From contig CAZLLV010000561.1 in assembly GCA_964560325.1 (NCBI GenBank), forward strand, positions 486 through 64,485: DNA of 64,000 nt, written 5' to 3'. The translations under genes were made by a program, and so were the position numbers. The notes under the pieces were generated by a model, which saw nothing but the letters and a program-made list of their open reading frames with translations, searched no databases and was not told the DNA's origin. Source of the stretch: an uncultured Thermoanaerobaculia bacterium (GTDB taxonomy: Bacteria; Acidobacteriota; Thermoanaerobaculia; Multivoradales; DATKCC01). Numbering within the stretch: position 1 is the first letter of the stretch; each line of letters starts with the position of its first letter. Positions 6,572 through 57,211 of this stretch are shown one piece after another.

Positions 6572-7270
6572 TCAACCGGCCCGATCGGCCGCAGGATTCC
6601 TCTCGAGGCGGCCGGCCTCTTCCCGGTCCGCGAGGACGGCCACTCGGGTTGCCAGACTGTGGACCCAGAAGAATAGCACCGTAAACCCGAGCGAGGCGGC
6701 GAGCAGCAGATAGAGGATCTGCGGGTCCATGCCCACGTCCATCTCTTCGTTGATCACCGGCTCCGGGTGCAGCGAGTCGAACATCCGCGGCATCACGAAG
6801 AGCAGGAACGGCGCGACCACCAGGCCGAGGACGGCGTAGGCGCCGGTCACCCGGCCCCGCACCTCCTGGTCGGCGATCTGGTCGCGCAGCGCGAGGTACG
6901 CGGCGTAGTAGACGAGCAGCATGGTGATCGAGATCTGCCGCGGGTCCCAGTTCCAGAAGGCGCCCCACTCGACGCGCGCCCAGATCGAGCCGGAGAGGGT
7001 CGCGAGCAGGCAGAAGACCAGTCCGAGCCCGATCGCCGTGGCGGCCGCCAGGTCGTGCCGGCGATCCCGTCCCTTCAGATAGCGGATGCTCCAGATCCCG
7101 GCGGCGCAGAAGGCGATGAGCGACGTCCACGCCATCGGCACGTGGAAGAAGAGGATGCGGGCCGACTCGCCGCCGCCGACGAACCCCTGCATCCGGGGCG
7201 CGCCCACGTAGGCGAGGACGACGCAGGCTCCGATCCAGAGCCAGAGGAACCATGGAAGAATCTGTCGCAT
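6572..7270 (-). CDS. ccmC: heme exporter protein CcmC
   Basis: Real start is MRQILPWF at 7270. The ORF-track N-terminus is an R/A/G-rich artefact. WGxxWxWD-type motif present (WGAFWNWDPRQ), with six TM helices. Confidence 0.85.
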   Translation of the reverse strand: MRQILPWFLWLWIGACVVLAYVGAPRMQGFVGGGESARILFFHVPMAWTSLIAFCAAGIWSIRYLKGRDRRHDLAAATAIGLGLVFCLLATLSGSIWARVEWGAFWNWDPRQISITMLLVYYAAYLALRDQIADQEVRGRVTGAYAVLGLVVAPFLLFVMPRMFDSLHPEPVINEEMDVGMDPQILYLLLAASLGFTVLFFWVHSLATRVAVLADREEAGRLERNPAADRAG

Positions 7271-7368
7271 CGGGTGTTCTCTCAAGGTGCGTCCCGGGGG
7301 CAGGACGTGACGGTATCGCGTCGGACGGCCGCGTGCACCACCCCACGGGACGGGGCGCCGGCCGAGCC

Positions 7369-8055
7369 TCAAGGGTTCCAGATGACCGGGAAGAGCATCA
7401 GCCCCGCCACGGTCAGGGTGGCATCGTACAGGACCAGAGCCTGCATCTCCTCTCCCGGCGGCTCGCCGGCGACCGCCGCGCGGGTGAGCTGGACGGCGAA
7501 GAAGAGCCCGGGCACCAGCACGGGTAGCAGGAGGACCGCGAAGAGCGCGCTCTTGCTGCGCGCTTGCGCCACCATCGCCGCCACCAGGGTGCTGCCCGCG
7601 GCGAGGCCGTAGCCGCCCGCCGCGAGCGCCGCCACCAGCAGGAGCGGCCGGCGCGCCTCGAGCTGGACCATCGCCAGGAAGAGCGGCGTGATCAGCGCCT
7701 CCAGCAGCAGCACGACGGTCAGCCCGTAGAGGAGCTTGCCGGCGAAGAGCGCCGACGGCGTGGCCGCGAGCCGCAGGGCGGTGGCGGTGTGAGTCTCCTC
7801 CTCGGCCACGAAGATCCGCGGCAGACCCGCGGTGACGGCGAACAGCACGATCAGCCAGAGGACGACGGGCAGCACCGTGACCGCGATCTGCGGCACGGTG
7901 CCGAGCGAGCCGAGCACCAGGCTCACCACCACGAGCGTGGTGAAGGCGAACAGGCCGAGGGTGTTCAAGGCATAGCGGGTGCGGTACTCGCACCGCCAGT
8001 CCTTGACGAAGACCGCCGCGGCCTCAGCCGCCCAGCGCGAGGCGCGACCGGACAT
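7369..8055 (-). CDS. ccmB: heme exporter ABC permease CcmB
   Basis: 228 aa, six TM helices, located between ccmA and ccmC. Starts MSGRASRW at 8055. Confidence 0.8.
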   Translation of the reverse strand: MSGRASRWAAEAAAVFVKDWRCEYRTRYALNTLGLFAFTTLVVVSLVLGSLGTVPQIAVTVLPVVLWLIVLFAVTAGLPRIFVAEEETHTATALRLAATPSALFAGKLLYGLTVVLLLEALITPLFLAMVQLEARRPLLLVAALAAGGYGLAAGSTLVAAMVAQARSKSALFAVLLLPVLVPGLFFAVQLTRAAVAGEPPGEEMQALVLYDATLTVAGLMLFPVIWNP

Positions 8056-8668
8056 TCGGGATCTCCAGTGGACCGGGGTTGGCGACGACGGCGAGACCGC
8101 CGCCTTCGAGGTGGCGCGCGAGCAGCTCGGTCCCCTGGTCGATGCCGGGGCGGTCGAGGTTCTGGAACGGCTCGTCGAGGAGCAGCAGACGGGGCCGCGC
8201 GAGGAGCGCCCAGGTCCACCGCAGGCGCTGGCGCATGCCGGACGAGAGCGCCCCCGCCGGCCGGTCGTGGGGGAGACCGACCAGGTCGAGCAGCTCGCCG
8301 GCGCGCGACTCCGGCACATCGCGGAGGCGGCAGAAGAAGCGAAGGTTCTCGAGCGTCGTCAGCTCCTCGTAGAGAGCGAGGTCGGGCGCCACGAAGCCGA
8401 CCGCTCGCCGGCGCGCCGCGATGTCGAGCGCCACGCCGTCCTCGCGGTACTCCACCGTGCCGCGCTCCGGGGCGAGCAGCCCGGCGAGCACGCGCAGCAG
8501 CGTCGACTTGCCCGAGCCGTTCGAACCGACCACCAAAAGCGCCTCCCCCGGTCCCACTTCGCCCGACACCCCCGTCAGCACGTGAAGCGGCCCGAACCTG
8601 CGGTGCAGGTCGTCGAAGAGCAGGTGAGCGGACGCATCGGCGGAGGGCACGGGCCGGGAGCGTAGCAA
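8024..8668 (-). CDS. ccmA: heme exporter ATP-binding protein CcmA
   Basis: Walker A GSNGSGKST, ABC signature LSSGMRQR and Walker B LLLLDEP. Overlaps the ccmB start. Confidence 0.85.
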   Translation of the reverse strand: MLRSRPVPSADASAHLLFDDLHRRFGPLHVLTGVSGEVGPGEALLVVGSNGSGKSTLLRVLAGLLAPERGTVEYREDGVALDIAARRRAVGFVAPDLALYEELTTLENLRFFCRLRDVPESRAGELLDLVGLPHDRPAGALSSGMRQRLRWTWALLARPRLLLLDEPFQNLDRPGIDQGTELLARHLEGGGLAVVANPGPLEIPNVRSRLALGG

Positions 8669-8690
8669 AGCGGCTCGGCCGGAGGCGTCT

Positions 8691-8978
8691 TCAGGCGGCC
8701 GAGAGAGGGCGCACCTTCAGACTGCCGCGCTTCTTCTCGGCCTGCCAGAGGTCGTACTGGATCTGCTGAGCGAGCCAGCTCTCGGCTGTGGTGTCGAACG
8801 CCACGGAGAGCCGCACCGCCATCTCGGGGCTGATGCCGGCGCGGCCGTTGAGGATCGCGGAGAGGGTCTTGCGGCTCACGTCGAGCGCGCGGGCGGCCTC
8901 GGTCACGGTCAGGCCGAGCGGCTCCAGGCAGAGCTCGCGCAGGACCTCGCCGGGATGCGGTGGATCGTGCATCTGCAT
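8691..8978 (-). CDS. higA: HigA-family antitoxin (XRE-type HTH)
   Basis: 95 aa: [50 protein letters not shown]...YDLW. Lies immediately downstream of the toxin gene. Confidence 0.8.
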
Positions 8979-8989
8979 GCTCTTCACCT

Positions 8990-9271
8990 CTAGTGGTAGT
9001 CCTCGTAATCGACGCGGTCCACGTCGTCGCCATCGAACTCGAAGGTCACCCGCCAGTTGCCGCTCACCACCACCGACCACCGGCCCTTCCCGCTCCCTTT
9101 GAGCGCGTGCAGCCGGAGCCCGGGCAGGTCCATGTCGCGGGGCTCGTTCGCGACGGCGAGACGACCGAGGATCAGGCGTAGTCGCTTCGCATGCTGCGCC
9201 TGGATCTTGGCGGTGCTTCCGCGCGTGAAGAACGCTTCGAGGCCCTTGTGCCGGAAGCCGCGGATCGCCAT
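8990..9271 (-). CDS. higB: HigB-family toxin (RelE/ParE superfamily plasmid maintenance killer)
   Basis: 93 aa: [38 protein letters not shown]...GNWRVTFEF. Toxin-first HigBA gene order. Confidence 0.8.
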
Positions 9272-9353
9272 ACGCCGAGCGTAACGCGATACGTCTCAGG
9301 TTACAAGTACCGGCGTCGCTTGAGGGCCGGGCAGTGGCGGTACAGAATGCCCC

Positions 9354-11474
9354 GTGCCCACCTCCTCGCGCCTCCTCGCCGTCGCTCTCCTCTCCACGCT
9401 CGCCTGCTCCGGCGCGCCGCGCGCCGCCACATCTCCGGCGGCACCGGAGCCGGACGGCGAGGCGATGCGGGCGGTGCTCCTGTCGCTGGTCGACCAGCAG
9501 CTCTACGAGCCGACGATCGTGCGGCGGGGGCTGGTGGGGCCGACGGAGGTCCGGCGGGCGACGGCGGTGGCGGTCGGGCGGATCGGCGACCCGGACGGGC
9601 TGGAGGCGCTCTACGCGCTGCTCGCCGACGACGACGTGGAGGTGCGGCGAGAGGCGGCGTTCGCGATCGGCGAGGTGATGGAGGCGCCCGAGCTCCTGGC
9701 GACCGGGGGCGAGGCGCCGGAGGCCAGGGTGCGCGCCGCGGCCCGACTGCTCGACGCCGTCGGCGATCCGGACCGCGACGTCGGCCGCCTGGCGGTCGAA
9801 GCGCTCGGCAAGGGCGGCGTTTCGATCGCGACGGTGGCCGAGCGGCTGGGCGGGATCGAAGACGCGGCGGAGCGGTGGGCGCGGCTCCTGCCGGGGCTCT
9901 TCCGCTATCCGGAGCCCGCGTCGGTGGCGGTGGCGGCCGACTTCCTCGTCAGCGAGACCGCCGCCGACCCCGAGCTCCACCGCTGGGCCGCCTACGCCCT
10001 CACCCGGGAGCCGCGGCCGGAAGCGGTGCCGCACGTCCGCACCCTCGTCGCCGACGCCGACCCGCGCATCCAAGCCTGGGCAGCGCGGGCGCTCGGCCGG
10101 ATCGGCGACGCCTCCGACCTGCCGCGGCTCTTCCTGCTCCTCGCGTCCGACGACGCCGGTCCGGTCGTCCACGCCCTCCGCTCGGCCCGCGCGCTGGTCG
10201 ACGCGAGCGGCGAGGAGGCGCCGGCCGCGTGGCGCGGACCGCTCGGGCAGCTCGTGGCGGACCCGCGGCCGGGCGTGCGGGTGACGGCGATGGAAGCGTC
10301 GGCCGCCTGGCTGCCGGACGAGACGCTCGGGAGGGCGCTGGCGCGGATCGCCGGGGGCGACGACACGGCCTGGGAGCGGGGCACCGCGCTCGTCGCCCTG
10401 GCCGTGGGCGGTGATCCGCGGGCGAGCGGCCTGGCGGCCGAGCTGGCCGGGTCGGACGACGAGACGCTCCGGGCGTACGCGGCCGAAGCCGCCGGGGTCC
10501 TGGAAGAGGAGGACCTGCTGGCGATCCTCGCCGACGACCGGCGCGCGCGGGTGCGCCAGGCGGTCCTGGCGGCGCGTCTGGCGCTGACCGGCGAGGAGGG
10601 CGCCGAGGGTGCGGCTCGCGAGCTCGCCCGCGCCGCGCTCCGCGACCCCGACGCCGGCGTGCGGACGACGGCGCTCGGCTGGCTGGTCGACCGCCCGGTG
10701 CTGACGGTCCCGGAGGTGGGCGCCGCCTTCGCCCCGGCATCCGCCGCGGCATCCGCCACAGTCCCAGGGGCACCTGTCGAGCGGACGGTCGAGGAGCTGC
10801 TGACCGCGGTCGACGCGCTGGCGGCCCTGGCGGCGGACGCCGCCGCGGAAGCCGACGACCCGAGGTCCGCCCTGGAGACCGACCCCGCCGTCGGCCTCTT
10901 GCTGGCGGTCACCGACACGGCCGAGCTGCCGGTGCGCCGACGCGCGGCCGAAGCGCTCGCCGCGCTCGGTCTGCCGCGGCCCGACCCGGGGCACCACCCG
11001 ACGCGACTCCCACCCGCCGTCTACCGCAGCGTTCTCGAACAGGCCGCCGCGCCGCGCACCGTCGAGATGGTCACCCGGCGCGGCGCGGTGACGATCCGCC
11101 TCGACTGCCCGCGGGCGCCGCTCACCTGCCTGAGCTTCCTCCAGCTCGTCCGCCAGGGGTACTACGACGGCCTCGCCTTCCACCGGGTGGTGCCCGACTT
11201 CGTGGTCCAGACGGGCGACCCGCGCGGCGACGGCTGGGGCGGACCGGGCTACACGATCCGCGACGAGATCGGCCGCCTCCGCTACGGCCGCGGTGTGGTC
11301 GGCATGGCGCTCGCCGGCCCCGACACCGGCGGCAGCCAGCTCTTCGTCACCCTCGCGCCGCACCCCCACCTCGACGGCGGCTACACCGCCTTCGGCGAGG
11401 TGGTCGAGGGGATGGAGGTGCTCGACGAGATCCGCCAGGGGGACCGGATCGTCACGGTCCGCGAGGTGCCGTGA
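9354..11474 (+). CDS. lipoprotein with HEAT-like repeats and a C-terminal cyclophilin-type peptidyl-prolyl isomerase domain
   Basis: Lipobox LSTLACSG, then repeated HEAT/PBS-lyase-like helical units. The C-terminus [25 protein letters not shown]...[21 protein letters not shown] is a cyclophilin PPIase. Confidence 0.75.
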
Positions 11475-12589
11475 CGACCGTCCTGGCGCTCGGGGTCGGG
11501 GCGGTCTTCCTCGCCCTGGCGCTCCGGGTCGACCGGTGGCGGAGGTACGCGCCGCCCCTCGCCCCGGCGGACGGCGCGGCGGAGGAGCAGGGGGCGGTCA
11601 CCGTGCTGCTGCCGGCCCGGGACGAGGAGGGGAACGTCGAAGCGTGCGTCCGCGGGCTGCTGGCGCGAACGGGCGAGCCGCCGGTCCCGGCGCGGGTCGT
11701 GGTGATCGACGACGGCTCCGAGGACCGGACGGCCGAGATCGTCCGGCGGATGGCGGCCGAGGAGCCGCGGGTCGAGCTGGTCGCGGCGCCGCCGCTCCCC
11801 GCCGGCTGGAAGGGGAAGGTCCACGCCCTCGAGACCGGCCTCGGCCTCGTGGAGACGCCCTGGCTCCTCTCGACCGACGCCGACACCCGGCACCACCCCG
11901 ACCTGCTCGCCCGCGCCCTCGCGACCGCCCGCGAGCGGCGGCTCGACTCGCTCTCGGTCACCGGCTTCGAGGAGGCGTGCGGCCCGGGGGAGAACCTGGT
12001 CACGCCGGTCGTCTTCGCTCTTCTCGACGCGCTGCTCGGCGACTGGGGACCGGCGGCGGCCGGCGAGACCGAGATCGCGAACGGGCAGTTCTTCCTGGTG
12101 CGGGCGGCCGCCCTCCGCACCGCCGGCGGCTTCGCCAGCCTGCGCAGCGCCGCCCTCGACGACGTGACCCTCGCCCGGACACTGCGCGCCGCCGACTTCC
12201 GCCACGGCTTCCTGCGCGCGCCGGAGCTGCTGCGCGTGCGCATGTACCGAGGTTTCCGCGCGACCTTCCGCGGCTGGCGCCGCAACCTGGGCGCGATCTT
12301 CGCCGGCCGGCGGCGCGACGCGGCGCTCGTCCTCTCGGCGCTCCTCGCCCCGCCGGCGCTGCTCGCGGCGCTGCTCCTCGGCGGGCACGGCCTCCCGGCG
12401 CTCCTCCTCTGGGCCTGCGGCGCAGCCGCGTCGGCCGTCCTCCGGCGCGGCAGCGGCCACGCGCCGGCCTACGGTCTTCTGTACCCCCTGGACGCCCTCG
12501 TCACCGGCTCCTGCCTCGCCCTCGGCCTGCGCGACGCGGCACGCGGCGCGCTCGCGTCCTGGAAAGGTCGCCCCGTGCGGCTCGAGTAG
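11471..12589 (+). CDS. glycosyltransferase family 2
   Basis: [14 protein letters not shown] and [10 protein letters not shown] motifs (DxD-type GT-A fold) with C-terminal hydrophobic segments. GTG start overlaps the upstream stop. Confidence 0.7.
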
Positions 12590-18482: not shown

Positions 18483-20084
18483 GTGCCATTCATGATGTGC
18501 ACGAACCCGCCCGGACGGACCGTCCGCCGAAAGCCTCTCCGCGATTTCCCCGTTCCCGTCGTATTCGTCCTCGTGGCGCTCCTGGCCGCGGCGCTTCCCG
18601 GCGTCACCGCCCACGCGCAGGAGATCGCGACCGCGCCTCTCGACCCGCAGGCCGACTACCCGGTCGGCGGGGTGCTCGCAGAGGTGCAAGGGGGCGGCTT
18701 CGTGGCCGCCTGGAGCCGGGGCATCCGATTGAGCTTCGGTGTCGACCAGGTGGCGCCGGGGGAGCCGGTGGCGGTCTGGATGTCCCCGGAGGGAGATCCG
18801 CTCTCGACCGTCCGGACCCTCCGCGAGGACGGCGAGCCGCTGACGACGCCCGTGGCGCTCGGCTCGGTGCGGGCCGGGGAGGCACTGGTGGTCCTCACCG
18901 GGGGAACCGCCGGCGATCCGCAGGTCGTCGCCCGGCGGGTCTCCCAGGACGGTTCTCTCGGGCCGGCGTGGACGATCGAGGCCTGCGCACAGGCCCAGAG
19001 CTTCGAGCTCGAGAGCAACGGACCGACCGGCTACTTCCTGCTCTGCGGCGGCCGGGTTCAGCGGCTCGCGAGCGACGGTCAGCCGGCGGGGGCCCCGATC
19101 GTTCTGGCGCCGCCGGAGCTCGGACCTGCCGACGCCCGGGGTGCGACGACGGCGGACGGGGATCTGTGGGTGGTCTGGGCGCAGGACAGCTTCGACGGCC
19201 GTGGTGCGTTCGTCCGCCGGCTCGGTCCGGGCGGCGCTGCCGAAACGCCGGTGAGCCTCGTCGCTCGCCTCGGAGCCGAGACCCTCGGCCCACCGCGGAT
19301 CGACGTGGCGGCGCTTCCCGAAGGCGGTGCCGCCGTCGTCTGGGCCGGCGCGCAGGGTCTGTTGCACTTCCGGCTCGTGAATCGGGAGGGGACGTTCGAC
19401 GTCGCCGAGACGCGCTTCCTCGGCCCGGTGGGGGACGGTCCGGCGAGCGCGCCGCGCGTGGTGGCGAGCCGGAACCAGGGGCTGCTGGCCTTCTCCTGGC
19501 GGGAGCCGGTCGGCGGCGGCTCGCACGCCGCCGCCGGGTACCTGCGCCTCGTGCCGGTCGCGACCAGTAGGCCGGGGAACGCGATCACGATCGATCACGG
19601 ATTCGCCGCCTCACTGCTGTTCGACCCCCGAGACCGCCTGGCGGTCCTGGCTCTCGAGCCCCGGCTCCTCGACTTCAACACCTACCTGAGCCCACGGTTC
19701 GGCCTCACCCCGCTCGCGACGCTGATGCCGCCGCCGGGCGACGGCGTGGTCTCGGACGCCTTCCCCGGCTTCCGCTTCTGGGTCCGGATCGGCGGCGACG
19801 AGCCCGATCCCCGGATCGGCACGCTCGAGCCCCTCTGCCAGCCGGAGACCGCCTGCTTCAGCGGCTCGTTGCCGGGGCGGAGCGAGGTCGAGGTGCGGAT
19901 CGTCGGTCCCAAGCCGAACGGCTACCTGTGGCCGAACGTGGTCCGCTTCACGACCTCCCAGGTGGAGGTCTGGATCGAGCAGATCGCGACCGGCGAGCGG
20001 CGCTACTACCTGCTGGACGGCGTGGACCCCGGATCGAACGAGCTCGACGGTCTGTTCGACCGCTTCGGCTTCCTGCCGCGGTAG
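18483..20084 (+). CDS. secreted beta-propeller-like protein carrying the conserved about-105-aa C-terminal module
   Basis: Signal peptide, then repeated VVWA / WVVWAQ blade-like segments. The C-terminus PGFRFWVRIGG...CQPETACFSGSLPGRSEVEVRIVGPKPNGYLWPNVVRFTTSQVEVWIEQ is shared with CDS 31218 and CDS 55637. Confidence 0.6.
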   Translation: MPFMMCTNPPGRTVRRKPLRDFPVPVVFVLVALLAAALPGVTAHAQEIATAPLDPQADYPVGGVLAEVQGGGFVAAWSRGIRLSFGVDQVAPGEPVAVWMSPEGDPLSTVRTLREDGEPLTTPVALGSVRAGEALVVLTGGTAGDPQVVARRVSQDGSLGPAWTIEACAQAQSFELESNGPTGYFLLCGGRVQRLASDGQPAGAPIVLAPPELGPADARGATTADGDLWVVWAQDSFDGRGAFVRRLGPGGAAETPVSLVARLGAETLGPPRIDVAALPEGGAAVVWAGAQGLLHFRLVNREGTFDVAETRFLGPVGDGPASAPRVVASRNQGLLAFSWREPVGGGSHAAAGYLRLVPVATSRPGNAITIDHGFAASLLFDPRDRLAVLALEPRLLDFNTYLSPRFGLTPLATLMPPPGDGVVSDAFPGFRFWVRIGGDEPDPRIGTLEPLCQPETACFSGSLPGRSEVEVRIVGPKPNGYLWPNVVRFTTSQVEVWIEQIATGERRYYLLDGVDPGSNELDGLFDRFGFLPR

Positions 20085-20093
20085 TCGCCACCG

Positions 20094-20903
20094 CTATCCC
20101 GCGGGCGAGCGTGCCTCCAGCCAGGACTGCCAGATCGCGCCCTCCCGCTCGGCGACGGCGGGGGCGTCGTCGCCGAAAAGGTAGGCCGAAGCGGTCGTGT
20201 AGACGCCTTCACCCCAGGCGAAGGTACCGACGAGGGCGTAGCCGAGAGCGGGCCGGTCGAGCCGGATCAGGATCTCGTGGTGGTTCGGCTCGGCGCCCAG
20301 GTGCTCGACGGCGCCGACGAGCGCCGGCGCGCCGCCCGTCGTGGCGACCGAGTCGCCGGCCGCGACTCCCTCCAGACCGAGCGCGGCCACGAGGTCGCTC
20401 CAGGCGCGGCTCTCCGGTGCTTCGCCGCGGCCGGTGGCCCGGAAGGAGGAGCAGCGCCGGCCGGCGAAGTGGGCGAGGTAGAGCCGGAGGAGCCGGAAGA
20501 ACGGCGGCCAGCCGCGCTCGAAGCTCTCGAGCTGATCGTCCCAGTCGTCGCCCTCGGCGAACAGGCTGTGGACCATGCGCACGACGCAGGTTCCGCCGCC
20601 GCGCGCCTCGACCACGATCTCGGTCGCGACCGGCGGCGCTCCCGGCATCCAGTCGCGCTCCTCGTAGGCGAACCGGCGCGGCGGCTCCCAACCGGTGACC
20701 ACGCCCTTCGACGTGCCCATCTCGGGGCCCAGGTCGAACGTCACCTCTCCGCCCTCGCGCTCGTCGATCTCGGTGGGCACGAACCACGCGCTGGTCCCCG
20801 GCCCGGTCGCGACCGCCTGCCAGACCTGTTCGGGAGTGCCGGGGACCTCCACCTCCATGGTGACCTTCCGCGTTCCGGCGGCTTCGTCCTTCTCGACGCT
20901 CAT
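20094..20903 (-). CDS. SRPBCC superfamily protein (AHSA1 / activator of Hsp90 ATPase-like)
   Basis: Real start is MSVEKDEAAG at 20903, with AAGGAG seven nucleotides upstream. Contains an SRPBCC-type beta-grip domain. Confidence 0.65.
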   Translation of the reverse strand: MSVEKDEAAGTRKVTMEVEVPGTPEQVWQAVATGPGTSAWFVPTEIDEREGGEVTFDLGPEMGTSKGVVTGWEPPRRFAYEERDWMPGAPPVATEIVVEARGGGTCVVRMVHSLFAEGDDWDDQLESFERGWPPFFRLLRLYLAHFAGRRCSSFRATGRGEAPESRAWSDLVAALGLEGVAAGDSVATTGGAPALVGAVEHLGAEPNHHEILIRLDRPALGYALVGTFAWGEGVYTTASAYLFGDDAPAVAEREGAIWQSWLEARSPAG

Positions 20904-20970
20904 GAGGGCTCCTTCGACGTTCGGTTTCGGGGGTGTCGATGATCTCGGCGACGCGCAGAGGATCGTGCCA

Positions 20971-20990
20971 TTGACAAGGTATGTTGTCAA
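20971..20990. promoter_or_regulatory. AT-rich perfect palindrome TTGACAA-N6-TTGTCAA in a divergent intergenic region
   Basis: Sequence ttgacaaggtatgttgtcaa, between the SRPBCC gene (minus strand) and the ADOP gene (plus strand). It is conspicuous against the 72% GC background and contains an ATGT core. Confidence 0.4.
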
Positions 20991-21051
20991 TGCTTCTGCG
21001 CCGGTCGCGGCCGGTTGTAACCTCGCCCGTCCGACCGCCGTAGTACGAGCC

Positions 21052-23511
21052 ATGGACCTCGCCAGGAATCTCCGCTACGTGCTCCGCGGCCTGCGCCGCA
21101 CCCCTTCGTTCACCGCCACCGCCGTAGTCACGTTGGCCGTCGGGATCGGTGCCGCGGCGGCGGTCTTCAGCGTCGTCCACGGTGTGCTGCTCCAGCCTCT
21201 GTCGTTCGACGAGCCGGACCGGCTGGTGGGGCTCTGGCACGAGGCGCCGGGGCTCGAGTTCGACCTGCTCAACCAGTCACCCGCGCTCCACTTCACCTAT
21301 CTGGAGGAGAACCGGAGCTTCGACGGCGTCGGGATGTGGGACAACGATCGGGTGACGGTGACCGGGACCGCCGAGCCGGAAGTGGTGCCGGCGATGCGGG
21401 TGACCGACGGCACGCTGCCGCTCCTGGGGGTGCAGCCGGTGCTGGGGCGGCTCTTCACCGCCGAGGACGACTCGCCCGGCACCGGCCGGACGGTGATCCT
21501 GTCGAACGCCTTCTGGCGCGCCCGCTTCGGTGGAGACCGGGACGTCGTCGGCCGCAGCCTGACGGTCGACGGCGAGCCGCACGACGTGATCGGCGTCCTG
21601 CCTGCCGGCTTGCAGTTCCTCGACCACGACCCCGACCTCTACCTGCCGTTCCGCTTCGACCGGGCCGAGGTCTTCTTCGGGAACTTCAGCTTTCAGGGGG
21701 TGGCGCGGCTCCGCGACGGGGTCACGATCGAGCAGGCGGACGCCGACGTGGCGCGCATGATCCCGCTCTCGCTGGAGCACTTTCCCCTGCCCGGCGGCTT
21801 CACCCGGGAGATGTTCGAGTCGGCCCGCATCGGCCCGAACCTTCGGCCGCTCGAGAAAGACGTGATCGGCGACGTCGGGCGCGTGCTCTGGGTGCTCTTC
21901 GGGACCGTCGGCATCGTGCTGATCGTCGCCTGCGCCAACGTCGCGAACCTGCTCCTGGTCCGCGCCGAGGGGCGCTACCAGCAGATCGCGGTCCGCTCCG
22001 CGCTGGGCGCCGACCGGAAGCGCCTCGCCTCCGAGATGCTGCTCGAAAGCCTGGTGCTCGGCATCGCGGGCGGTGCCGGCGGGCTGCTGCTCGCCGCCGG
22101 CGGCCTGCACCTCCTGCGCACGCTCGAGCCGGAGGGCCTGCCGCGGCTCGACGAGATCTCCCTCGACCCGGTCGTCCTGCTGTTCACGCTGGCGATCTCG
22201 GTGGTGGCGCCGATGCTCTTCGGTCTGCTGCCCGTGGCGCGGTTGAAGGTGGCGGACCTGATCACGGGCTTGAAGGAGGAGTCGCGGGGCGGAACGGTCG
22301 GCACCCGGGGCCGGCAGGCCCGGGACGTCCTGGTCGCGGCCCAGGTCGCCCTGGCGCTCGTCCTGATGGTCGGCTCCGGGCTCATGGTGCGGAGCTTTCT
22401 CGCCCTGCGGAGCGTCGAGCCCGGATTCACCGACCCCGCCCACGTGCAGACGCTGCGCGCGCCGGTGCCGACCGCCGAGGTCGAGGACCCGGCCGAGGTC
22501 GCCCGGCTCCACGAGCGCATCCTGGCCGAGCTCGCCCGCCTGCCCGGGGTCGAGTCGGCGAGCCTCGCCTCGTCGGCCACCATGGACGGCTGGGACTCGA
22601 ACGATCCGGTCTTCGTCGAAGACTTCCCGCAGGCGGATGACACGCTGCCGCCGATCCGCCGCTTCAAGTGGATCGCGCCCGGCTACTTCCGGACCATGGG
22701 CAACCCGATCCTGGCCGGTCGCGATCTGACCTGGGACGACGTGCGCGAGCGCCGCGAGGTGGCGCTCGTCACCCGCGACCTCGCCGCCGAGTACTGGGGC
22801 GATCCGGAGGCGGCGGTCGGCCGGCGCATCCGCAACCAGCCGGGGACGGCCTGGAAGGAGATCGTCGGCGTGGTCGGTCAGATCCACGACGACGGGGTCG
22901 ACCAGGCGGCGACGCCGACGGTCTACTGGCCGCTCGCCCAGGAGGACTTCTGGGAGGAGGGGGTGTTCGTGCCGCGCTCGGTCGCCTACGTGCTGCGCAC
23001 CTCGAGGGCCGGTACCACCAGCCTGCTCGACGAGGCGCGGGCGGCGGTCTGGTCGGTCAACCCGCGGCTGCCGCTGTCGGAGGTGTGGACCCTGGACGAG
23101 ATCCTCGGCCGCTCGATGGCCCGCACCTCGTTCACCCTCGTGATGCTTGCGATCGCCGCGATGACGGCACTGCTCCTGGGCGGCGTCGGGATCTACGGCG
23201 TGACCTCGTACGTGGTGGCGCAGCGCAGCCGCGAGATCGGCGTGCGCATGGCACTCGGCGCGCAGCGGGGCGACGTCTCGCGGCTGGTGCTCGGGCACGG
23301 GCTGCGGCTGGCGGTGGTGGGCACCGGGATCGGCCTGGTGGCGGCCTTCCTGCTCACCCGGCTGATGGCGGCGCTCCTGTTCGGCGTCGAGGCGCTCGAT
23401 CCCGCGACCTACGGCGCGGCGGGCGTCGGCGCGGCCGTCCTGGCGCTCACCGCCAGCTGGTTACCGGCCCGGCGCGCGGCCCGGGTCGATCCGATCGAGA
23501 CCCTCCACTGA
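21052..23511 (+). CDS. ADOP-family (acidobacterial duplicated orphan permease) MacB/FtsX-like ABC transporter permease
   Basis: N-terminus MDLARNLRYVLRGLRRTPSFTATAVVTLAVGIGAAAAVFSVV is the ADOP signature. Duplicated FtsX permease halves each follow a large periplasmic domain. Confidence 0.85.
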   Translation: MDLARNLRYVLRGLRRTPSFTATAVVTLAVGIGAAAAVFSVVHGVLLQPLSFDEPDRLVGLWHEAPGLEFDLLNQSPALHFTYLEENRSFDGVGMWDNDRVTVTGTAEPEVVPAMRVTDGTLPLLGVQPVLGRLFTAEDDSPGTGRTVILSNAFWRARFGGDRDVVGRSLTVDGEPHDVIGVLPAGLQFLDHDPDLYLPFRFDRAEVFFGNFSFQGVARLRDGVTIEQADADVARMIPLSLEHFPLPGGFTREMFESARIGPNLRPLEKDVIGDVGRVLWVLFGTVGIVLIVACANVANLLLVRAEGRYQQIAVRSALGADRKRLASEMLLESLVLGIAGGAGGLLLAAGGLHLLRTLEPEGLPRLDEISLDPVVLLFTLAISVVAPMLFGLLPVARLKVADLITGLKEESRGGTVGTRGRQARDVLVAAQVALALVLMVGSGLMVRSFLALRSVEPGFTDPAHVQTLRAPVPTAEVEDPAEVARLHERILAELARLPGVESASLASSATMDGWDSNDPVFVEDFPQADDTLPPIRRFKWIAPGYFRTMGNPILAGRDLTWDDVRERREVALVTRDLAAEYWGDPEAAVGRRIRNQPGTAWKEIVGVVGQIHDDGVDQAATPTVYWPLAQEDFWEEGVFVPRSVAYVLRTSRAGTTSLLDEARAAVWSVNPRLPLSEVWTLDEILGRSMARTSFTLVMLAIAAMTALLLGGVGIYGVTSYVVAQRSREIGVRMALGAQRGDVSRLVLGHGLRLAVVGTGIGLVAAFLLTRLMAALLFGVEALDPATYGAAGVGAAVLALTASWLPARRAARVDPIETLH

Positions 23512-31217: not shown

Positions 31218-33194
31218 ATGAAGTATGTGACATCTCTCCGATGGTCCTCTGCCGTTCGCGGCTCCCTCCTCACGGTCCTCCTCTCCACGACGCTCCCGGT
31301 CCCCGTGGCCGCCGACGTGGCCGACGCCTTCGGGGATCCGGTCCTCCTGCGCGACCTCCAGCCCGGAACCTCCGGCTCCCGGCCGTTCGGCTACGTCTCC
31401 CTCGGCGACCGGGCGCTCTTCCTCACCTCCCACGAGGTGGCGGGCCGGGGAGTGGAGGGGGAGAACCGCCTCTGGGGTACCGACGGCACCAACGGCGGGA
31501 CCGTTCCGCTGCCGCCGGACGCCGACATCCCCTTTCCGATCCACGCGGTGTCGCCGGACGGCTCGTCCGCCTTCTACAACGCGGTCGACCGACAGGGCGG
31601 CGACGCTCCCGGCTCGCTCTGGGTCACGGACGGTACGGTGGCCGGCACCATGGAGCTCGCCGACGGCGTCGTCCTCGAGGACTTCGACGAGGCCCTCCCC
31701 CACTTCGGTCCGGACGGGCACCTCTACTTCGTGGGCCGGACGGGCGACCCGGAGACCCACGATCTGGAGCCCTGGGTGAGCGACGGCACGCCGGAGGGGA
31801 CCTTCCGGCTCGCCGACACGATTCCCGGACCCGATCAGGCCCGCATCGGCGAGATCGTCTCCTTTCGGGGAGAGGTCTACTTCACGTCCTTCGATCCGGA
31901 CAGCGGACGTCCGGCGCTCTGGAAGAGCGACGGGACGACGGTGGGGACCGTCGTGGCGGCCGTCCTGATGGACGGTGCCGCCGATTTCGGAGTGCTGGAG
32001 GCCGCGGGCTCGTCGCTCTACCTCGCCGGCACTGACCGCCAGGGATTCAGCGCCGTATGGCGGAGCGACGGGACGCCCGACGGCACCGTGAAGCTGGCCC
32101 GGTTGGGTGATGCGGGATACGGGGGCGGGCCGTTCAGGGCCTATTTCGTGGCCGATCTGTCGGACGCTTCCGGCGACCGGACCGTCTGGCGGGCGCTCGA
32201 GCTCGGATCGCCCGGGGTGCTCTGGCGTTTGGATGGCACGCCGGGCGGCGCCGAGCGGATCGGCGAGACCACCCCCGGCTCGATCGGTGACGCGGTGGTG
32301 CTGGACGGGGTCGCCTACTTCCGGGCGGATACCGTGGAGACCGGCACCGAGCTCTTCCGTACCGACGGCACGGCGGCGGGGACCGGGCCGGTAGTCGACT
32401 GGTGTCCGGGTCCCTGCTCGGGGATCGGCGACGGCCCGGTGGTGTTCGCCGGCCGGCTGTTGCTCAGCTCCCAGCAGGGGACCGGGACCGGTTCGGAGCC
32501 CCTGGTGTCGGACGGGACGGCGGCCGGTACCCGCCTGCTCGCCGACCTCTGCGCCGGCCCGAGTAGCTCCGGCGCGGGGATACGGTCCGGGTCCGATCTC
32601 GGCTACGGCTACGCCTTCGTGGCGGCCGGTGCCGGGACCGCTCGGCAGGTCTGGGTCACCGATCTCACGCCGGAAGGGACCGTGCGGCTCACGGGCTTCC
32701 CGGGCGGTGTCGCCTCCTCCGACGTTCGGCGCGCCGGTGACCGGCTGGTCTTCTCCGTCAGCGACGCGGCGACCGGCGTCGAGCCGTGGACGCTGCCCTT
32801 CTTCGGCCTCGGCGGTGATCCGCCGCTCCCGCCAGGTCCCTGGCATACCGGTCCCGGTTTGCCCGGGTTCGAGGTCAAGGCGCGCATCCGGGCCGGCGGC
32901 GAGACGATCGCGACCGCCGTCGAGCCGGAGTGCATCCCGGAAACCCTCTGCCTCTCCGGCGCGCTGCCGGGCCGCTCGGAGCTCTTCGTGCGCATCGTCG
33001 GTCCCAAGCCGAACGGCTTCCTCTGGCCGACCCTGGTGAAGTTCTCGACCTCCGAGATCGAGGTCTGGATCCGGCAGACGGCGCCCGGGCCGACCCAGGG
33101 CGAGGTGCGCTACTACCGGCTGGAGGGTGCAAGCCCAGGGTTCGACGAGCTGCCGGGCCTGTTCGACCGGGACGGCTTTCGGCCGCTCTCGTAG
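31218..33194 (+). CDS. secreted ELWxxDGT-repeat protein carrying the conserved C-terminal module
   Basis: Signal peptide, then repeats such as SLWVTDGTVAGT, EPWVSDGTPEGT, ALWKSDGTTVGT and ELFRTDGTAAGT. The C-terminus PGFEVKARI...ECIPETLCLSGALPGRSELFVRIVGPKPNGFLWP...EVWIRQ is homologous to the C-termini of CDS 18483 and CDS 55637. Confidence 0.65.
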   Translation: MKYVTSLRWSSAVRGSLLTVLLSTTLPVPVAADVADAFGDPVLLRDLQPGTSGSRPFGYVSLGDRALFLTSHEVAGRGVEGENRLWGTDGTNGGTVPLPPDADIPFPIHAVSPDGSSAFYNAVDRQGGDAPGSLWVTDGTVAGTMELADGVVLEDFDEALPHFGPDGHLYFVGRTGDPETHDLEPWVSDGTPEGTFRLADTIPGPDQARIGEIVSFRGEVYFTSFDPDSGRPALWKSDGTTVGTVVAAVLMDGAADFGVLEAAGSSLYLAGTDRQGFSAVWRSDGTPDGTVKLARLGDAGYGGGPFRAYFVADLSDASGDRTVWRALELGSPGVLWRLDGTPGGAERIGETTPGSIGDAVVLDGVAYFRADTVETGTELFRTDGTAAGTGPVVDWCPGPCSGIGDGPVVFAGRLLLSSQQGTGTGSEPLVSDGTAAGTRLLADLCAGPSSSGAGIRSGSDLGYGYAFVAAGAGTARQVWVTDLTPEGTVRLTGFPGGVASSDVRRAGDRLVFSVSDAATGVEPWTLPFFGLGGDPPLPPGPWHTGPGLPGFEVKARIRAGGETIATAVEPECIPETLCLSGALPGRSELFVRIVGPKPNGFLWPTLVKFSTSEIEVWIRQTAPGPTQGEVRYYRLEGASPGFDELPGLFDRDGFRPLS

Positions 33195-33291
33195 CGCCGG
33201 ATCGACGGCGGGCGCGCGGCGCGCGTAGACGGAGATGGCGGAATCGCGTGCCGCGGTCCGCCGTTGTCTACGGAGCACGAGGAACTCTTCG

Positions 33292-34407
33292 ATGACCTTC
33301 CGAACCCACCGCACCCACCGCGCCAGCGTCCCCGCCGTCACCCTCCTGGCGGTGCTCGGCTTCGCGCTCGCCGCCGCAGTCGCCGCGCCGGCGGCGTGGG
33401 CCGCGCCCGAGAACCCGGCCGCCAAGGACCCCTTCCAGTGGCGCAAGGGCAACCTCGGCTGGCTCGAGCCGATGCTGGTCGAGGCGATCGAGGGCGAGCC
33501 GCTCGCGGTCGGGCCCGGTTTCTTCGACGAGGATCTGCGCCGGCGCGCCAAGATGACCCCCAACCACGAGGCGCTCTGGCGGTCGCTGCGCTACACGGCG
33601 GCGGTCCGGGGGGACGCGGGGGATCTCGAGCGGGAGCGCGAGCAGATCGGAGCGTGGTTCGAGCGCCAGCGGCGCGACGGCCTGCAGCTCGACGAGCCGG
33701 GCGGCTACGTCCAGGTCTGGTCGGCGGCCTCGGCGCTCGCCGCGCTCGCCGCCTGGGAGGATCTGTCGGCTCACCCGGACGATGCCGGCGCCGAGCACGT
33801 GACGCGCACGGTCCTCGGCTGGTGGCGCGACTTCGGCGCCTACTACGGCCGCCTGCGAACCGACAGCGGGCTCCTGCTCCGCGTCGGTGCACGACAGAAC
33901 CACCGGCCGCGCGACGCCGCCTTCGACGAGGTGCTGGTCGACCTGCTCCTCGGCCCGGCCGAGAGCGGCCCCCACGCCAACGCCCGCTGGATGGCGGGCA
34001 AGCCGGAGCACGCCTGGATGCGCCGCGGCCTGGGCGCCTGGAGCGCCCGCGAGGTGATGGAGCTCGGCGTGCCGCTCGACGAGATGGCACGCGAGGGGCT
34101 CGACGGGCCGCTGCCGCGGATCGCCAACCGGGTGACCCTGGAACCCGGCGAATGGGCCTGGATGCCGGTGATCTCCGGGCTGGGGCCGATGCGCTGGGCG
34201 AGCTGGTCGGAGGACGGAGAGATCGGCTTCACCGGCCACGCCAGGAACCGTCGCGCGCGCCGAGAGCTCGCCACCGCCCCGGAGGCGCCGCGCTTCCGGC
34301 TCCACGGAGGGATGACGACCGGCCCGGACGCGCAGCTCGCGCCGCTGCCGGATCTGCCGGAACGCCCCGCGGGCCGTGACGGCGAACGCCCCGTCGAGCG
34401 CCGGTGA
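33292..34407 (+). CDS. secreted hypothetical protein
   Basis: Signal peptide MTFRTHRTHRASVPAVTLLAVLGFALAAAVAAPAAWA. First gene of an operon translationally coupled to the TPR and CRTAC1 genes. Confidence 0.5.
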   Translation: MTFRTHRTHRASVPAVTLLAVLGFALAAAVAAPAAWAAPENPAAKDPFQWRKGNLGWLEPMLVEAIEGEPLAVGPGFFDEDLRRRAKMTPNHEALWRSLRYTAAVRGDAGDLEREREQIGAWFERQRRDGLQLDEPGGYVQVWSAASALAALAAWEDLSAHPDDAGAEHVTRTVLGWWRDFGAYYGRLRTDSGLLLRVGARQNHRPRDAAFDEVLVDLLLGPAESGPHANARWMAGKPEHAWMRRGLGAWSAREVMELGVPLDEMAREGLDGPLPRIANRVTLEPGEWAWMPVISGLGPMRWASWSEDGEIGFTGHARNRRARRELATAPEAPRFRLHGGMTTGPDAQLAPLPDLPERPAGRDGERPVERR

Positions 34408-35278
34408 CGCCACTCTCGGGTCCAACCGCGCTCGCGGTCCTCGCCCTCTTCGCGATCCCGGCGGCGCTTCCCGCCCAGGAGATCCCGGCCGCCGAGCAGG
34501 CCCTTTCCGACGGCCGCGCCGACGACGCGATCGAGCTCTATCGCGCGCAGGCCGCCGAGCGCCCGGAGGACGCCGGAGCCCACGCGATCCTCGGCCGCAC
34601 CCTCGCTCTCGCCGACCGCTACGGAGAGGCCGCGACGGCGCTCGAGCGGGCGGTCGCGCTGGGCGCGGACGACGTGCGGACCCTCCTCTACCTCGGCTCG
34701 GCGCTCTGGGAGAGCGGCCGGCCCGAGGCGGCCGATCCGGTGCTGGCGCGTGCCGCCCTCACTGCGGAAGCGGCGGCGGCCGGTACCGGAGCCGAGCTCC
34801 TCGCCCACCACCAGCTCGGTCGGCTGCGCCTCTGGGCCGGCCGGCCCGCCGAGGCGATCCCGTCGCTCGAGCGGGCGCTGGCGCTGCGGCCGTCGGCGGG
34901 GGACATCGCGCTCGACCTCGCCCGCGCTCTCGACCGCGCCGGCCGCACGGACGACGCGATCGCCGCCTTCCGGCGGGTGATCGAAGCTTCGCCGGACAGC
35001 CACCACGCCCGCTGGGGTCTCGCCCAGGTGCTCGCCCGCGCCGGCCGCCGCGACGAGGCGGCCGAGCAGCTCCGCGTCTACCGCGAGCTCTACGACGCCG
35101 ACCAGGACCGCACCCGCCGCATCCGCCGCGTCGAGTCGCTGGTCGACCTCGCGCACGTCCGCGCCCTCGACGGCGACCACGCCGCCGCCGTCCGGGCGCT
35201 CGAAGAGGCGGTCGGCCTCGACCCGGACGACCCGAACCTCCGCCGCCTCCTCGCGCGCGAGCGCCTAGCGGCGGGCGG

Positions 35279-35282
<4 letters not shown>
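34404..35282 (+). CDS. secreted TPR-repeat protein
   Basis: GTG start overlapping the upstream stop, a signal peptide, and TPR-like helical repeats. Confidence 0.65.
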
Positions 35283-55636: not shown

Positions 55637-57211
55637 TCACTCGAGGAACGCCTGCCGGTCCTGCAGGCCGGAAACGTCGGCTTCGGTCGGTCCGACCGGG
55701 TCGAGGACGTAGTGACGGACCGTGCCGGTGGCCGTGCGCCGTATCCAGACCTCCGCCCGCGATGGAGTGAAGCGGCTGACCTGGACCCAGAGGTAACCGT
55801 TGGGTCGCGGCCCGATCACCTTGACGAACAGCTCGGGCCGATCGGCGAGGGCGCCGGAGACGCAGAGCGTCTCGGCGATGCAGCCCGGAACCGCCTCTCC
55901 GAGTCGCTCGGCCGCGTCGCCGAAGCGGACCTTCACCTCGAAGCCGGGCAGATCGTCCGACACGAGCCAGCCTCCGTTCGGTGGATCGGCCGGCGGCTCG
56001 ACCGCACCGAGCTGAGTCGCCACCACCTGGAGCTCTCCCTCGCCGCGCGCCCGCCATACGCGGATCGACCATGGCCCCGGTTCCGGGTCCTCGACCTGGC
56101 AGAATTCGAGGCTCTCGGGAGAGGTCGCGGCGCAGGCCGCAGCCCACTCAGGATCGGGGAGCGAGCCGGGACCGACGAAGAGGTCGAAGTCGTTGCTCGC
56201 CGGCCGCACCACGCCCTCGCCGTTGAGCGCGAGCCGTAGGACGCGGGTAGTCGGGAGCACGTCGAAGGTGAAGAGGGCCTCGGGCTCTTCGGGGGAGAGC
56301 CGGCCGCTCGCCCCGTCGGCTCGGGCCGCAGGGTGGCGGGGGAGCTGAGGGAGATCACCGCACCAGCGGGTACCGAAGTCGAGGCCGGCGGCCTCCTCGA
56401 TCCATCGTCGTTCCCGGAATACGTCGGTGCTCGAGCTGAGGTTCGGCGGTCCGCAGGTCCCGTTCGAGATCGATTGGGCGACACCGATCACGCCCAGCTC
56501 TCCCCCCATATCGGCGAACAGAGGGCCGCCCGAGTCGTTGAAGCACAGCCCGGCCTCCTCGCCTGGAGGGGCCAGGGGAGCGTCGATCCGCCAACAGACG
56601 AGATGATCGGGGCACTCGCCCACGGTCGTGGCGCGACCGGTGCGCTTGATCGACTGATCCTCCACGTCGCGCGAGGTCCTCCCGAAGCCGACGAGCGTCG
56701 CCTGGGTGCCGTCGGACGGACTCGAACGCCGATTGATGGCCACCGGCAGCACGCCCTCCACCGGCCGGTCCAGCCGTAGGATCGCGAGGTCGTGCCCGGG
56801 CTCACCGGGCTCGCCCCAGAGCGGATGGAGGACGATCTCCTCGAGCTCGTAGAAGCCGGCGTGCTGGAAGAACACTCGTTTGCCCGCGGGATCGAGAAGG
56901 TCCGGTCGGTTCCGGCAGGCGTCCCCGATCAACAGCCGGCCCTGGCTCGAGCTGAAGTCGAAGCAGGCGCAGTGGGCGGCCGTGAGGACCGTGCTGCACC
57001 CGATCAGGGTGACGGTGCATTCGACCTCCGGATAGGTGAGGAGCCCGACGGCGGGGAAGCCCGTGGTCGGTACTCCGTTGAAGACCGGGGCCGTCAGGCT
57101 GTCCGGGGGCTCGACGCCCTGGGCCGGAGGACAGGCCACGAGCCAGCCGGTCGTCCCGACGACCAGGGAGACGGCGACCGCGAGGCCCGGAACGCTATGG
57201 CGATTTCCCAT
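55637..57211 (-). CDS. secreted S1 (trypsin-like) serine peptidase with a PPC domain and the conserved C-terminal module
   Basis: TAAHC (His), DLAILRLD (Asp) and DSGGPLF (Ser). A pre-peptidase C-terminal-like segment, NDFDLFVGPGSL. The C-terminus PGFEVKVRF...CIAETLCVSGALADRPELFVKVIGPRPNGYLW...EVWIRR is homologous to the C-termini of CDS 18483 and CDS 31218. Confidence 0.8.
   Translation of the reverse strand: MGNRHSVPGLAVAVSLVVGTTGWLVACPPAQGVEPPDSLTAPVFNGVPTTGFPAVGLLTYPEVECTVTLIGCSTVLTAAHCACFDFSSSQGRLLIGDACRNRPDLLDPAGKRVFFQHAGFYELEEIVLHPLWGEPGEPGHDLAILRLDRPVEGVLPVAINRRSSPSDGTQATLVGFGRTSRDVEDQSIKRTGRATTVGECPDHLVCWRIDAPLAPPGEEAGLCFNDSGGPLFADMGGELGVIGVAQSISNGTCGPPNLSSSTDVFRERRWIEEAAGLDFGTRWCGDLPQLPRHPAARADGASGRLSPEEPEALFTFDVLPTTRVLRLALNGEGVVRPASNDFDLFVGPGSLPDPEWAAACAATSPESLEFCQVEDPEPGPWSIRVWRARGEGELQVVATQLGAVEPPADPPNGGWLVSDDLPGFEVKVRFGDAAERLGEAVPGCIAETLCVSGALADRPELFVKVIGPRPNGYLWVQVSRFTPSRAEVWIRRTATGTVRHYVLDPVGPTEADVSGLQDRQAFLE

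Follow-up and report, generated by a model that had tools for sequence, protein, structure and literature searches.

The C-terminal domains (CTDs) of the type IX secretion system (T9SS; PF18962 / TIGR04183, type B TIGR04131) of Bacteroidota are beta-rich, ~80-120 residues long, and stand at the extreme C-terminus of unrelated Sec-exported proteins. Here we analyzed a module with the same properties, about 115 residues long, which ends three otherwise unrelated exported proteins encoded in a 64-kb stretch of DNA (contig CAZLLV010000561.1; G+C 71.7%; hereafter the window). The stretch belongs to an uncultured bacterium of the Thermoanaerobaculia, a widespread class of Acidobacteriota from soil and sediment with hardly any cultured members. 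As for the T9SS CTDs, the genes concerned are dispersed round the genome and the classes of cargo are similar (FN3, PPC, LamG, proteases). However, the module has no sequence-profile similarity to T9SS CTDs, and these are not among its best structural matches. Whereas the T9SS CTD is single and obligatorily C-terminal, the module is also found as tandem pairs, at the N-terminus, at both ends of a protein and alone; it is far more conserved between paralogues (about 50-60% identity) and carries a fixed pair of cysteines. To our knowledge, no T9SS has been described in the phylum that hosts the module.

Other terminal modules offer further comparisons. Carbohydrate-binding modules (CBMs) and the beta-sandwiches of the PPC and collagen-binding-domain kind are, like the module, non-catalytic, independently folding, joined by a flexible linker, terminal and often duplicated. 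In contrast to them, the module has no match to a hidden Markov model (HMM) of PPC or of any CBM family, its cargo is mostly not carbohydrate-active, it is restricted to one bacterial class and its C-terminal bias is stronger. By analogy, it may also be compared with SLH, LysM and dockerin domains, where one conserved module common to many exoproteins of a genome, at either terminus and in multiple copies for avidity, holds proteins on a surface or scaffold. Those are alpha, alpha/beta or EF-hand domains, from which the module differs in sequence and predicted fold, and no receptor polymer or cohesin-like partner was identified for it. The PEP-CTERM, MYXO-CTERM, GlyGly-CTERM and LPXTG tags (served by exosortase, rhombosortase and sortase) are likewise C-terminal on many secreted paralogues, and PEP-CTERM is common in the host phylum. 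However, tags of the PEP-CTERM type are ~25-35 residues long, with a signature motif, a transmembrane helix and a basic tail, whereas the module is a 115-residue globular domain that ends in GFxP and has no hydrophobic helix. The module is a new family, without a Pfam or NCBIfam match, within a known kind of terminal module. Its hosts are presumably diderm Acidobacteriota.

Three exported proteins of the window end in the same module

The original prediction for the window, made from the DNA sequence without database searches, described homologous tails on three secreted proteins with unrelated N-terminal parts. We found the three open reading frames (ORFs) in place, and the genes and their module copies are as follows.

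Gene A: 18483-20084, plus strand, 533 aa (530 aa from the ATG at 18492), Sec-type exported protein with the module at its end
Module copy A: 19728-20078, plus strand, HMM envelope 433-549 of the stop-to-stop ORF, major sequence type, ending ...GLFDRFGFLPR-stop
Gene B: 31218-33194, plus strand, 658 aa, ELWxxDGT-repeat exported protein with the module at its end
Module copy B: 32820-33185, plus strand, HMM envelope 538-659, major sequence type, ending ...GLFDRDGFRPLS-stop
Gene C: 55637-57211, minus strand, 524 aa, trypsin-like serine protease with a weak PPC-like middle domain and the module at its end
Module copy C: 55643-55987, minus strand, HMM envelope 412-526, minor sequence type (VKVIGPRPNG..., SRFTPS), ending ...GLQDRQAFLE-stop

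When each tail was compared with the whole window by tblastn, only the other two copies were matched, with E values of 2e-29 to 1e-35 (1e-35 for copy A against copy B, about 2e-30 for copy C against A and B). No fourth copy was found in the window; since the next-best tblastn match had an E value of 0.025, there are exactly three copies, and their similarity is far beyond chance. The final ~115 residues of the three proteins align with 41 invariant columns and 49-58% identity. No BLASTP similarity was observed among the N-terminal parts (all E > 1), which are unrelated, as proposed.

The reading of protein B as an ELWxxDGT-repeat protein was borne out (TIGR04534, E 1.5e-55, 9 repeats); the protein is identical to database protein P0265. 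Protein C had been taken for an S1 protease with a PPC domain. Its trypsin domain is clear (PF00089, E 9e-15), but the PPC match, upstream of the module at residues 312-385, remains below threshold (PF04151, E 0.017). The N-terminal 410 aa of protein A matched no Pfam or NCBIfam family, so its description as beta-propeller-like is putative. Signal-peptide-like N-termini were recognized on all three proteins, as expected, by a heuristic of hydrophobicity and charge only. The signal peptide of protein C (57211-57130, minus strand) ends in LVAC, which is lipobox-like, and this protein may already be lipid-anchored.

The original prediction further held that the DNA of the core is nearly identical in two copies, and that the module was either under shared constraint or recently shuffled. 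An exact 21-mer is indeed present in copies A (19902-19922) and B (32997-33017), within an exact match of 25 nt, but the whole tails are only 56-65% identical in DNA when aligned by codon, which is about equal to, and no higher than, their amino-acid identity (50-57%). The 21-mer encodes VGPKPNG and is explained by the invariance of these residues together with a strong codon bias. The differences between tails are dominated by third codon positions (46-68 of ~119 codons), 22-29 of the 59-68 identical residues use different codons, and the G+C content at third positions (GC3) is 0.86-0.97 in the tails and 0.90 in gene A. Because third positions dominate the differences at this level of DNA identity, the window tails are, on the sequence evidence, old paralogues under purifying selection at the protein level and not freshly shuffled DNA; recent shuffling is refuted by this codon-position analysis.

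It is thus hardly credible that the similarity is an artefact, that is, a repeated DNA element or a recent local duplication translated by chance at gene ends. The exact match of 21-25 nt between copies A and B would suit such an artefact, as would a single database entry in which ribosomal protein S9 is 'fused' to the module. They are set against the coding-type GC3 and third-position differences, the hundreds of diverged members across 36 genomes described below and the confident prediction of a fold, and we rejected a DNA repeat or recent duplication on the codon-position analysis and on the broad family recovered by profile search. The fusion protein (P0119, 126 aa, on a 607-bp ENA contig) starts with the N-terminus of S9 (PF00380) and continues with the module from just before the cysteine pair to GFLP-stop; it is probably a chimeric assembly.

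Conserved residues and predicted fold of the module

The anatomy of the module was described from 421 unique complete instances. Their consensus is PxPPxGxWLTSxxxPGFRFKVRI...CIxETLCVSGAxPGRSEVFxRVVGPKPNGxLWPTLVKFTTSxVEVWIEQxxTG..RYYxL...GLFDRxGFxP. The fixed Cys-x5-Cys pair noticed in the three window copies is near-invariant across the family: the spacing is kept in 418/421 instances, and 416/421 have exactly two cysteines. Near-invariant positions include P16, F18, C39, E42, T43, C45, G48, A49, R53, E55 and R59 in the N-terminal half, and G62, P63, P65, N66, G67, L69, W70, Y96, L98, G110, D113, R114, F117 and P119 in the remainder; the conserved aromatics are W70, W84, Y96 and F117. In 248 of the 421 instances the stop codon follows directly after the last conserved proline (0 residues).

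A minor sequence type, marked by VKVIGPRPNG, SRFTPS and GLQDRxAF (Q112, P78, A116), accounts for ~11-19% of the instances and includes window copy C. Both types coexist in the same genomes, the window included. Judging from sequence, the minor type could reflect a second specificity for a ligand or partner.

The AlphaFold2 model of copy A (19743-20081, alignment A2) has eight beta strands, with a predicted local distance difference test score (pLDDT) of 93.8 and a predicted template modelling score (pTM) of 0.86. This model suggests an independently folding all-beta domain of ~115 residues. The model places one cysteine in the loop that follows strand 2 and the other in strand 3. A disulfide between them, plausible in an exported protein, would close this hairpin and probably stabilize the fold. 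As had been stated for the window copies, the module contains no transmembrane helix.

The module belongs to no described family

The tails were proposed to represent an undescribed domain, and our searches agree. Against Pfam (2025) and NCBIfam (June 2026), the module of the window proteins had no match at E <= 1, and that of 32 family members had none at E <= 10. The absence of a match in these 32 members extends to the T9SS CTD models PF18962, TIGR04183 and TIGR04131 (E <= 10; for the window tails, E <= 1) and to PPC (PF04151). The module also had no match among the NCBIfam sorting-signal models or the Pfam CBM families, nor at E <= 10 to dockerin (PF00404), SLH (PF00395) or LysM (PF01476), and its predicted structure contains neither an EF-hand nor helical repeats. 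A sequence search of the PDB with the module returned nothing at E <= 10. When the model was compared by Foldseek, the best E value was 0.41 in the PDB, with TM-scores <= 0.33, and 0.064 among viral models. No relevant work on the module was found in the literature. Membership in a known family was rejected on the empty Pfam, NCBIfam and PDB sequence searches. The absence of any family HMM match and of a hydrophobic C-terminal stretch also agrees with the stated lack of fit to T9SS CTD, PEP-CTERM, MYXO-CTERM and LPXTG.

Neither Pfam nor NCBIfam at present annotates a domain on these tails, and the majority of carriers go only by the name 'hypothetical protein'. One protein of 175 aa that consists of a signal peptide and the module (P0023) is named 'MYXO-CTERM domain-containing protein' by the Joint Genome Institute. 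It ends in ...GLFDRTGFLPQ and has no MYXO-CTERM-like hydrophobic tail, and from its sequence the label looks spurious.

The family is restricted to Thermoanaerobaculia

A module HMM had been suggested for searching beyond the window. With a profile of the three window tails, 183 proteins were retrieved, and every one with an organism name came from a metagenome-assembled genome (MAG) of the Thermoanaerobaculia; the proteins listed by this search were all <=216 aa, an apparent word-index bias. We then ran a profile of 32 sequences (A2) against 1.84 billion cluster representatives and obtained 544 matches at E <= 1e-3, 509 at E <= 1e-10 and 452 at E <= 1e-30. The family is therefore sharply bounded, without a twilight tail, and this boundary, as seen in sequence, argues for one conserved function.

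In a pattern scan of one genome per GTDB species, whose counts are lower bounds, we confirmed 152 stretches and kept 78 loci. All 78 come from Acidobacteriota MAGs; most of these bear the label Thermoanaerobaculia, and a few 'Holophagales' or 'gp7'. They span at least 36 assemblies, and one genome has at least 14 module-bearing ORFs. The range of the module is one class of Acidobacteriota, the Thermoanaerobaculia, and the 544 cluster representatives and 36 assemblies show that the three window genes are not a case of local paralogy only.

Position, copy number and cargo of the module

The loci and the window together gave 89 stop-to-stop ORFs (88 distinct). In 89/89, the last module ends 0-11 residues before the stop codon, usually 0. 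A C-terminal tandem pair was observed in 15 of the 88 distinct ORFs (~17%), and a sixteenth ORF with two copies has one at each end. Among the 144 best representatives, whose ranking by score favours tandem pairs, 138 (about 96%) are C-terminal, 99 with a pair and 39 with a single copy. In four of the 144 (P0159, P0203, P0210 and P0211), a signal peptide is followed by a tandem pair and then by 150-750 residues of other sequence, which includes an HExxH-containing region and an alpha/beta-hydrolase-like region. The protein with a module at each end (L071:5712-8003, plus strand, 763 aa, ELW-repeat-like) carries the first directly after its signal peptide and the second at its C-terminus; it lies on a 55-kb contig of the 'Holophagales' MAG SOY_29_metabat_132. 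Thus, of the original view that the module is always C-terminal, the terminal position stands, but the restriction to the C-terminus does not, given the four N-terminal pairs and the MAG protein with both ends occupied. The gene after the two-ended one (about 8000-10345) ends in a tandem pair.

Genuine genes for a signal peptide plus the module exist (P0034, on a 421-kb contig). A candidate module-only protein of 123 aa (P0040) was rejected as the frameshift-broken end of a longer gene in a long-read (nanopore) MAG. The parent gene (L001:8611-10380, the same as L013; contig_7017 of MAG MFD01721.bin.1.239) encodes a signal peptide, a PPC-like region, FN3 and the module. Several other small module matches from nanopore assemblies are likely to be the same frameshift artefact.

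Within tandem pairs, the first and second domains are 59% identical in the same protein, compared to 51-52% between proteins, which does not support specialized subtypes for the two positions. In the AlphaFold2 model of a tandem pair, the domains have a pLDDT of about 93, the linker residues 113-123 fall below 50 and the pTM is 0.55, with no confident packing between the domains. An obligate pseudo-dimer is not supported by the low pTM and the disordered linker. The model suggests two independent domains on a disordered linker, the pattern expected for avidity.

Nearly all carriers have a Sec-type signal peptide by the same heuristic as above. Pfam matches on 84 N-terminal parts gave the following census of cargo families.

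Pur_ac_phosph_N: 16
PPC: 14
fn3: 13
Laminin_G_3: 10
BNR / Sortilin: 5-6
PD40: 4
Metallophos: 3
TPR: 3
Trypsin_2: 3
Kelch: 2
Endonuclease_1: 1

Glycoside-hydrolase, lyase and esterase families (GH, PL and CE) are absent from the 25 commonest cargo families. Of 120 close ELWxxDGT homologues, 114 simply lack a tail and do not bear another sorting tag in its place; the tail therefore adds a property and is not needed for exporting this class of cargo. From these sequences, the tail of ELWxxDGT proteins would seem, if only mildly, to be an add-on.

Possible function of the module

From the architecture of the carriers, we infer that the module is an autonomous binding or tethering module, with a ligand on the cell's own surface favoured, and give this reading a probability of roughly 0.5; binding itself is predicted, as are the nature of the ligand and the place where it lies. 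In such a mechanism, Thermoanaerobaculia would append the module to one end, usually the extreme C-terminus, of many unrelated Sec-exported proteins, often in duplicate. The module itself would be a non-catalytic binder whose near-invariant polar and aromatic residues recognize one conserved ligand. The likeliest ligand would be a component of the envelope or matrix of the cell, either a glycan or a surface protein. The cargo (proteases, a nuclease, phosphoesterases, lectin-like and repeat proteins) would in this way be held at the cell surface after export, and tandem or two-ended copies would raise avidity.

The original prediction proposed a sorting, attachment or substrate-targeting domain. 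Its attachment part is the better supported, by the tandem, two-ended and stand-alone forms, while its sorting part is weakened. A sorting or secretion signal would be read after Sec export by an undescribed outer-membrane translocation or attachment machinery, in the manner of T9SS CTDs, and the tail would perhaps be cleaved or used for covalent anchoring. Many dispersed copies, diverse Sec-exported cargo and strong conservation between paralogues fit binding and sorting equally: such cargo (FN3, PPC, LamG, BNR, proteases) is typical of sorting-tag families, and high conservation would suit recognition by one machine. The size and beta-rich predicted fold of the module are also reminiscent of T9SS CTDs. 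The strongest point for sorting, and one that weighs against a binding module, is the extreme C-terminal bias (89/89 genome ORFs, about 96% of representatives, the stop usually straight after GFxP), which exceeds that of most CBM and SLH families and would be expected of a C-terminal sorting domain. On the same side, most examples of the N-terminal architectures are metagenome representatives that lack genomic context, and the module is not consistently charged or basic (median pI 5.4), which gives no indication of a simple electrostatic attachment to anionic polymers of the envelope, a possibility that we rejected. Nevertheless, binding or tethering is favoured over sorting because the inner copy of the flexible tandem pairs (15/88 genome ORFs and most high-scoring representatives) lacks a free C-terminus, because pairs occur directly after a signal peptide and copies at both ends of one protein, and because there are stand-alone forms without cargo as well as invariant polar and aromatic residues. 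Such arrangements recall binding or anchoring modules (CBM, SLH, LysM, dockerin) and are hard to reconcile with a signal that is recognized at the C-terminus and cut off. In addition, the module has no HMM similarity to Por_Secre_tail or to any NCBIfam sorting model, no linked machinery gene was found in 79 loci, and we know of no T9SS outside the Bacteroidota/FCB (Fibrobacteres, Chlorobi, Bacteroidetes) group. We therefore consider sorting possible but unlikely. The same doubt applies to its specific form, a Thermoanaerobaculia-specific pathway of sorting or surface attachment in which a dedicated outer-membrane machine, or an enzyme with its gene elsewhere in the genome, would recognize the folded, disulfide-locked module and export or covalently anchor the cargo.

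Two other functions deserve attention. As a CBM-type targeting domain, the module would bind a polymer of the environment (plant, fungal or microbial polysaccharide, or extracellular DNA) and concentrate enzymes there. CBMs are classically terminal, at either end, duplicated in tandem and joined by flexible linkers, as the module is, and the conserved aromatics listed above would suit this function. However, none of the 25 commonest cargo families is a glycoside hydrolase, lyase or esterase, the cargo consisting chiefly of FN3, PPC, LamG, BNR, repeat proteins, proteases and phosphoesterases; the module matches none of the CBM models in Pfam; and a CBM for a common polymer would not usually be confined to a single bacterial class. 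Since the cargo is mostly not carbohydrate-active, a tether to the cell's own surface or matrix is preferred over targeting to environmental polysaccharide, which we regard as improbable. A protein-protein assembly domain, dockerin-like or self-associating, would plug exoproteins into a surface scaffold or oligomer. High paralogue conservation that includes charged residues would suit a single protein partner, and the mostly C-terminal, occasionally N-terminal or doubled position recalls dockerins. This function appears very improbable: no partner candidate with repeated receptor domains was found near any locus, the lack of confident packing in the tandem model (pTM 0.55) does not indicate self-association, and the module has no dockerin or EF-hand signature and no Pfam match.

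The exoproteins that carry the module, a dozen or more in a genome, form a set that probably has one location or partner in common, and a profile HMM of the module would flag this surface or secreted proteome in metagenomes. There is a solid case for a new Pfam/InterPro entry, and as its confident model has no close solved relative, the module is also attractive for structure determination. Were it to bind a defined ligand of the envelope, it could possibly serve as a compact affinity or display tag. Should it turn out to be a sorting domain, a new pathway of secretion or attachment would be implied, with the module as a counterpart in function of the T9SS CTD in a phylum without a known system of this kind, and the lack of a close solved relative for its predicted fold would add to the novelty. 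The module would be of high interest only with the discovery of a dedicated pathway or of an unusual ligand.

Genomic context of the module genes

In the window, the module genes are 11-22 kb apart, and their neighbours are unrelated genes of the housekeeping kind.

Window neighbours: CitMHS transporter, AHSA1-like protein, MacB/FtsX permease, CNNM, TPR protein, amidohydrolase, cyclase, carbonic anhydrase and PBP1

Clustering of the flanking ORFs of 79 loci gave no universal neighbour of module genes. Linked machinery was rejected, the clusters obtained being MacB/FtsX permeases, the synteny of one orthologue and antisense ghost ORFs. The T9SS machinery (SprA/Sov, PorV, PorU, PorK-N) was not seen in the window or in the 79 loci, which cover up to about 20 kb each. 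In 17/79 loci, a module gene has duplicated MacB_PCD/FtsX permeases within 10 kb. Since their distance and orientation vary and these permeases are highly paralogous in Acidobacteriota, their proximity is probably background. One such permease stands next to gene A in the window (20668-23511, plus strand).

An orthologous family member of ~386 aa lies in conserved synteny in at least 10 genomes, with a divergent FHA/sigma-54 activator upstream and a uroporphyrinogen-decarboxylase-like gene (hemE) downstream.

Loci of the ~386-aa orthologue: L046, L047, L063, L065, L066, L070, L073, L075, L076 and L078, around 7000-11500

In 13 loci (L002, L015, L024, L030, L037 and others), antisense ORFs of 100-190 aa on the strand facing the module grouped together as a 'family'; these are ghosts of conserved high-GC coding sequence and not genes. 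Directly downstream of gene B, at 33235-34407 (plus strand), is an ORF of 390 aa with a signal-peptide-like N-terminus and no Pfam family. Its end is overlapped by a TPR protein of 300 aa (34380-35282, plus strand), and TPR regions are cargo of the module in other genomes (L006, L007 and L010).

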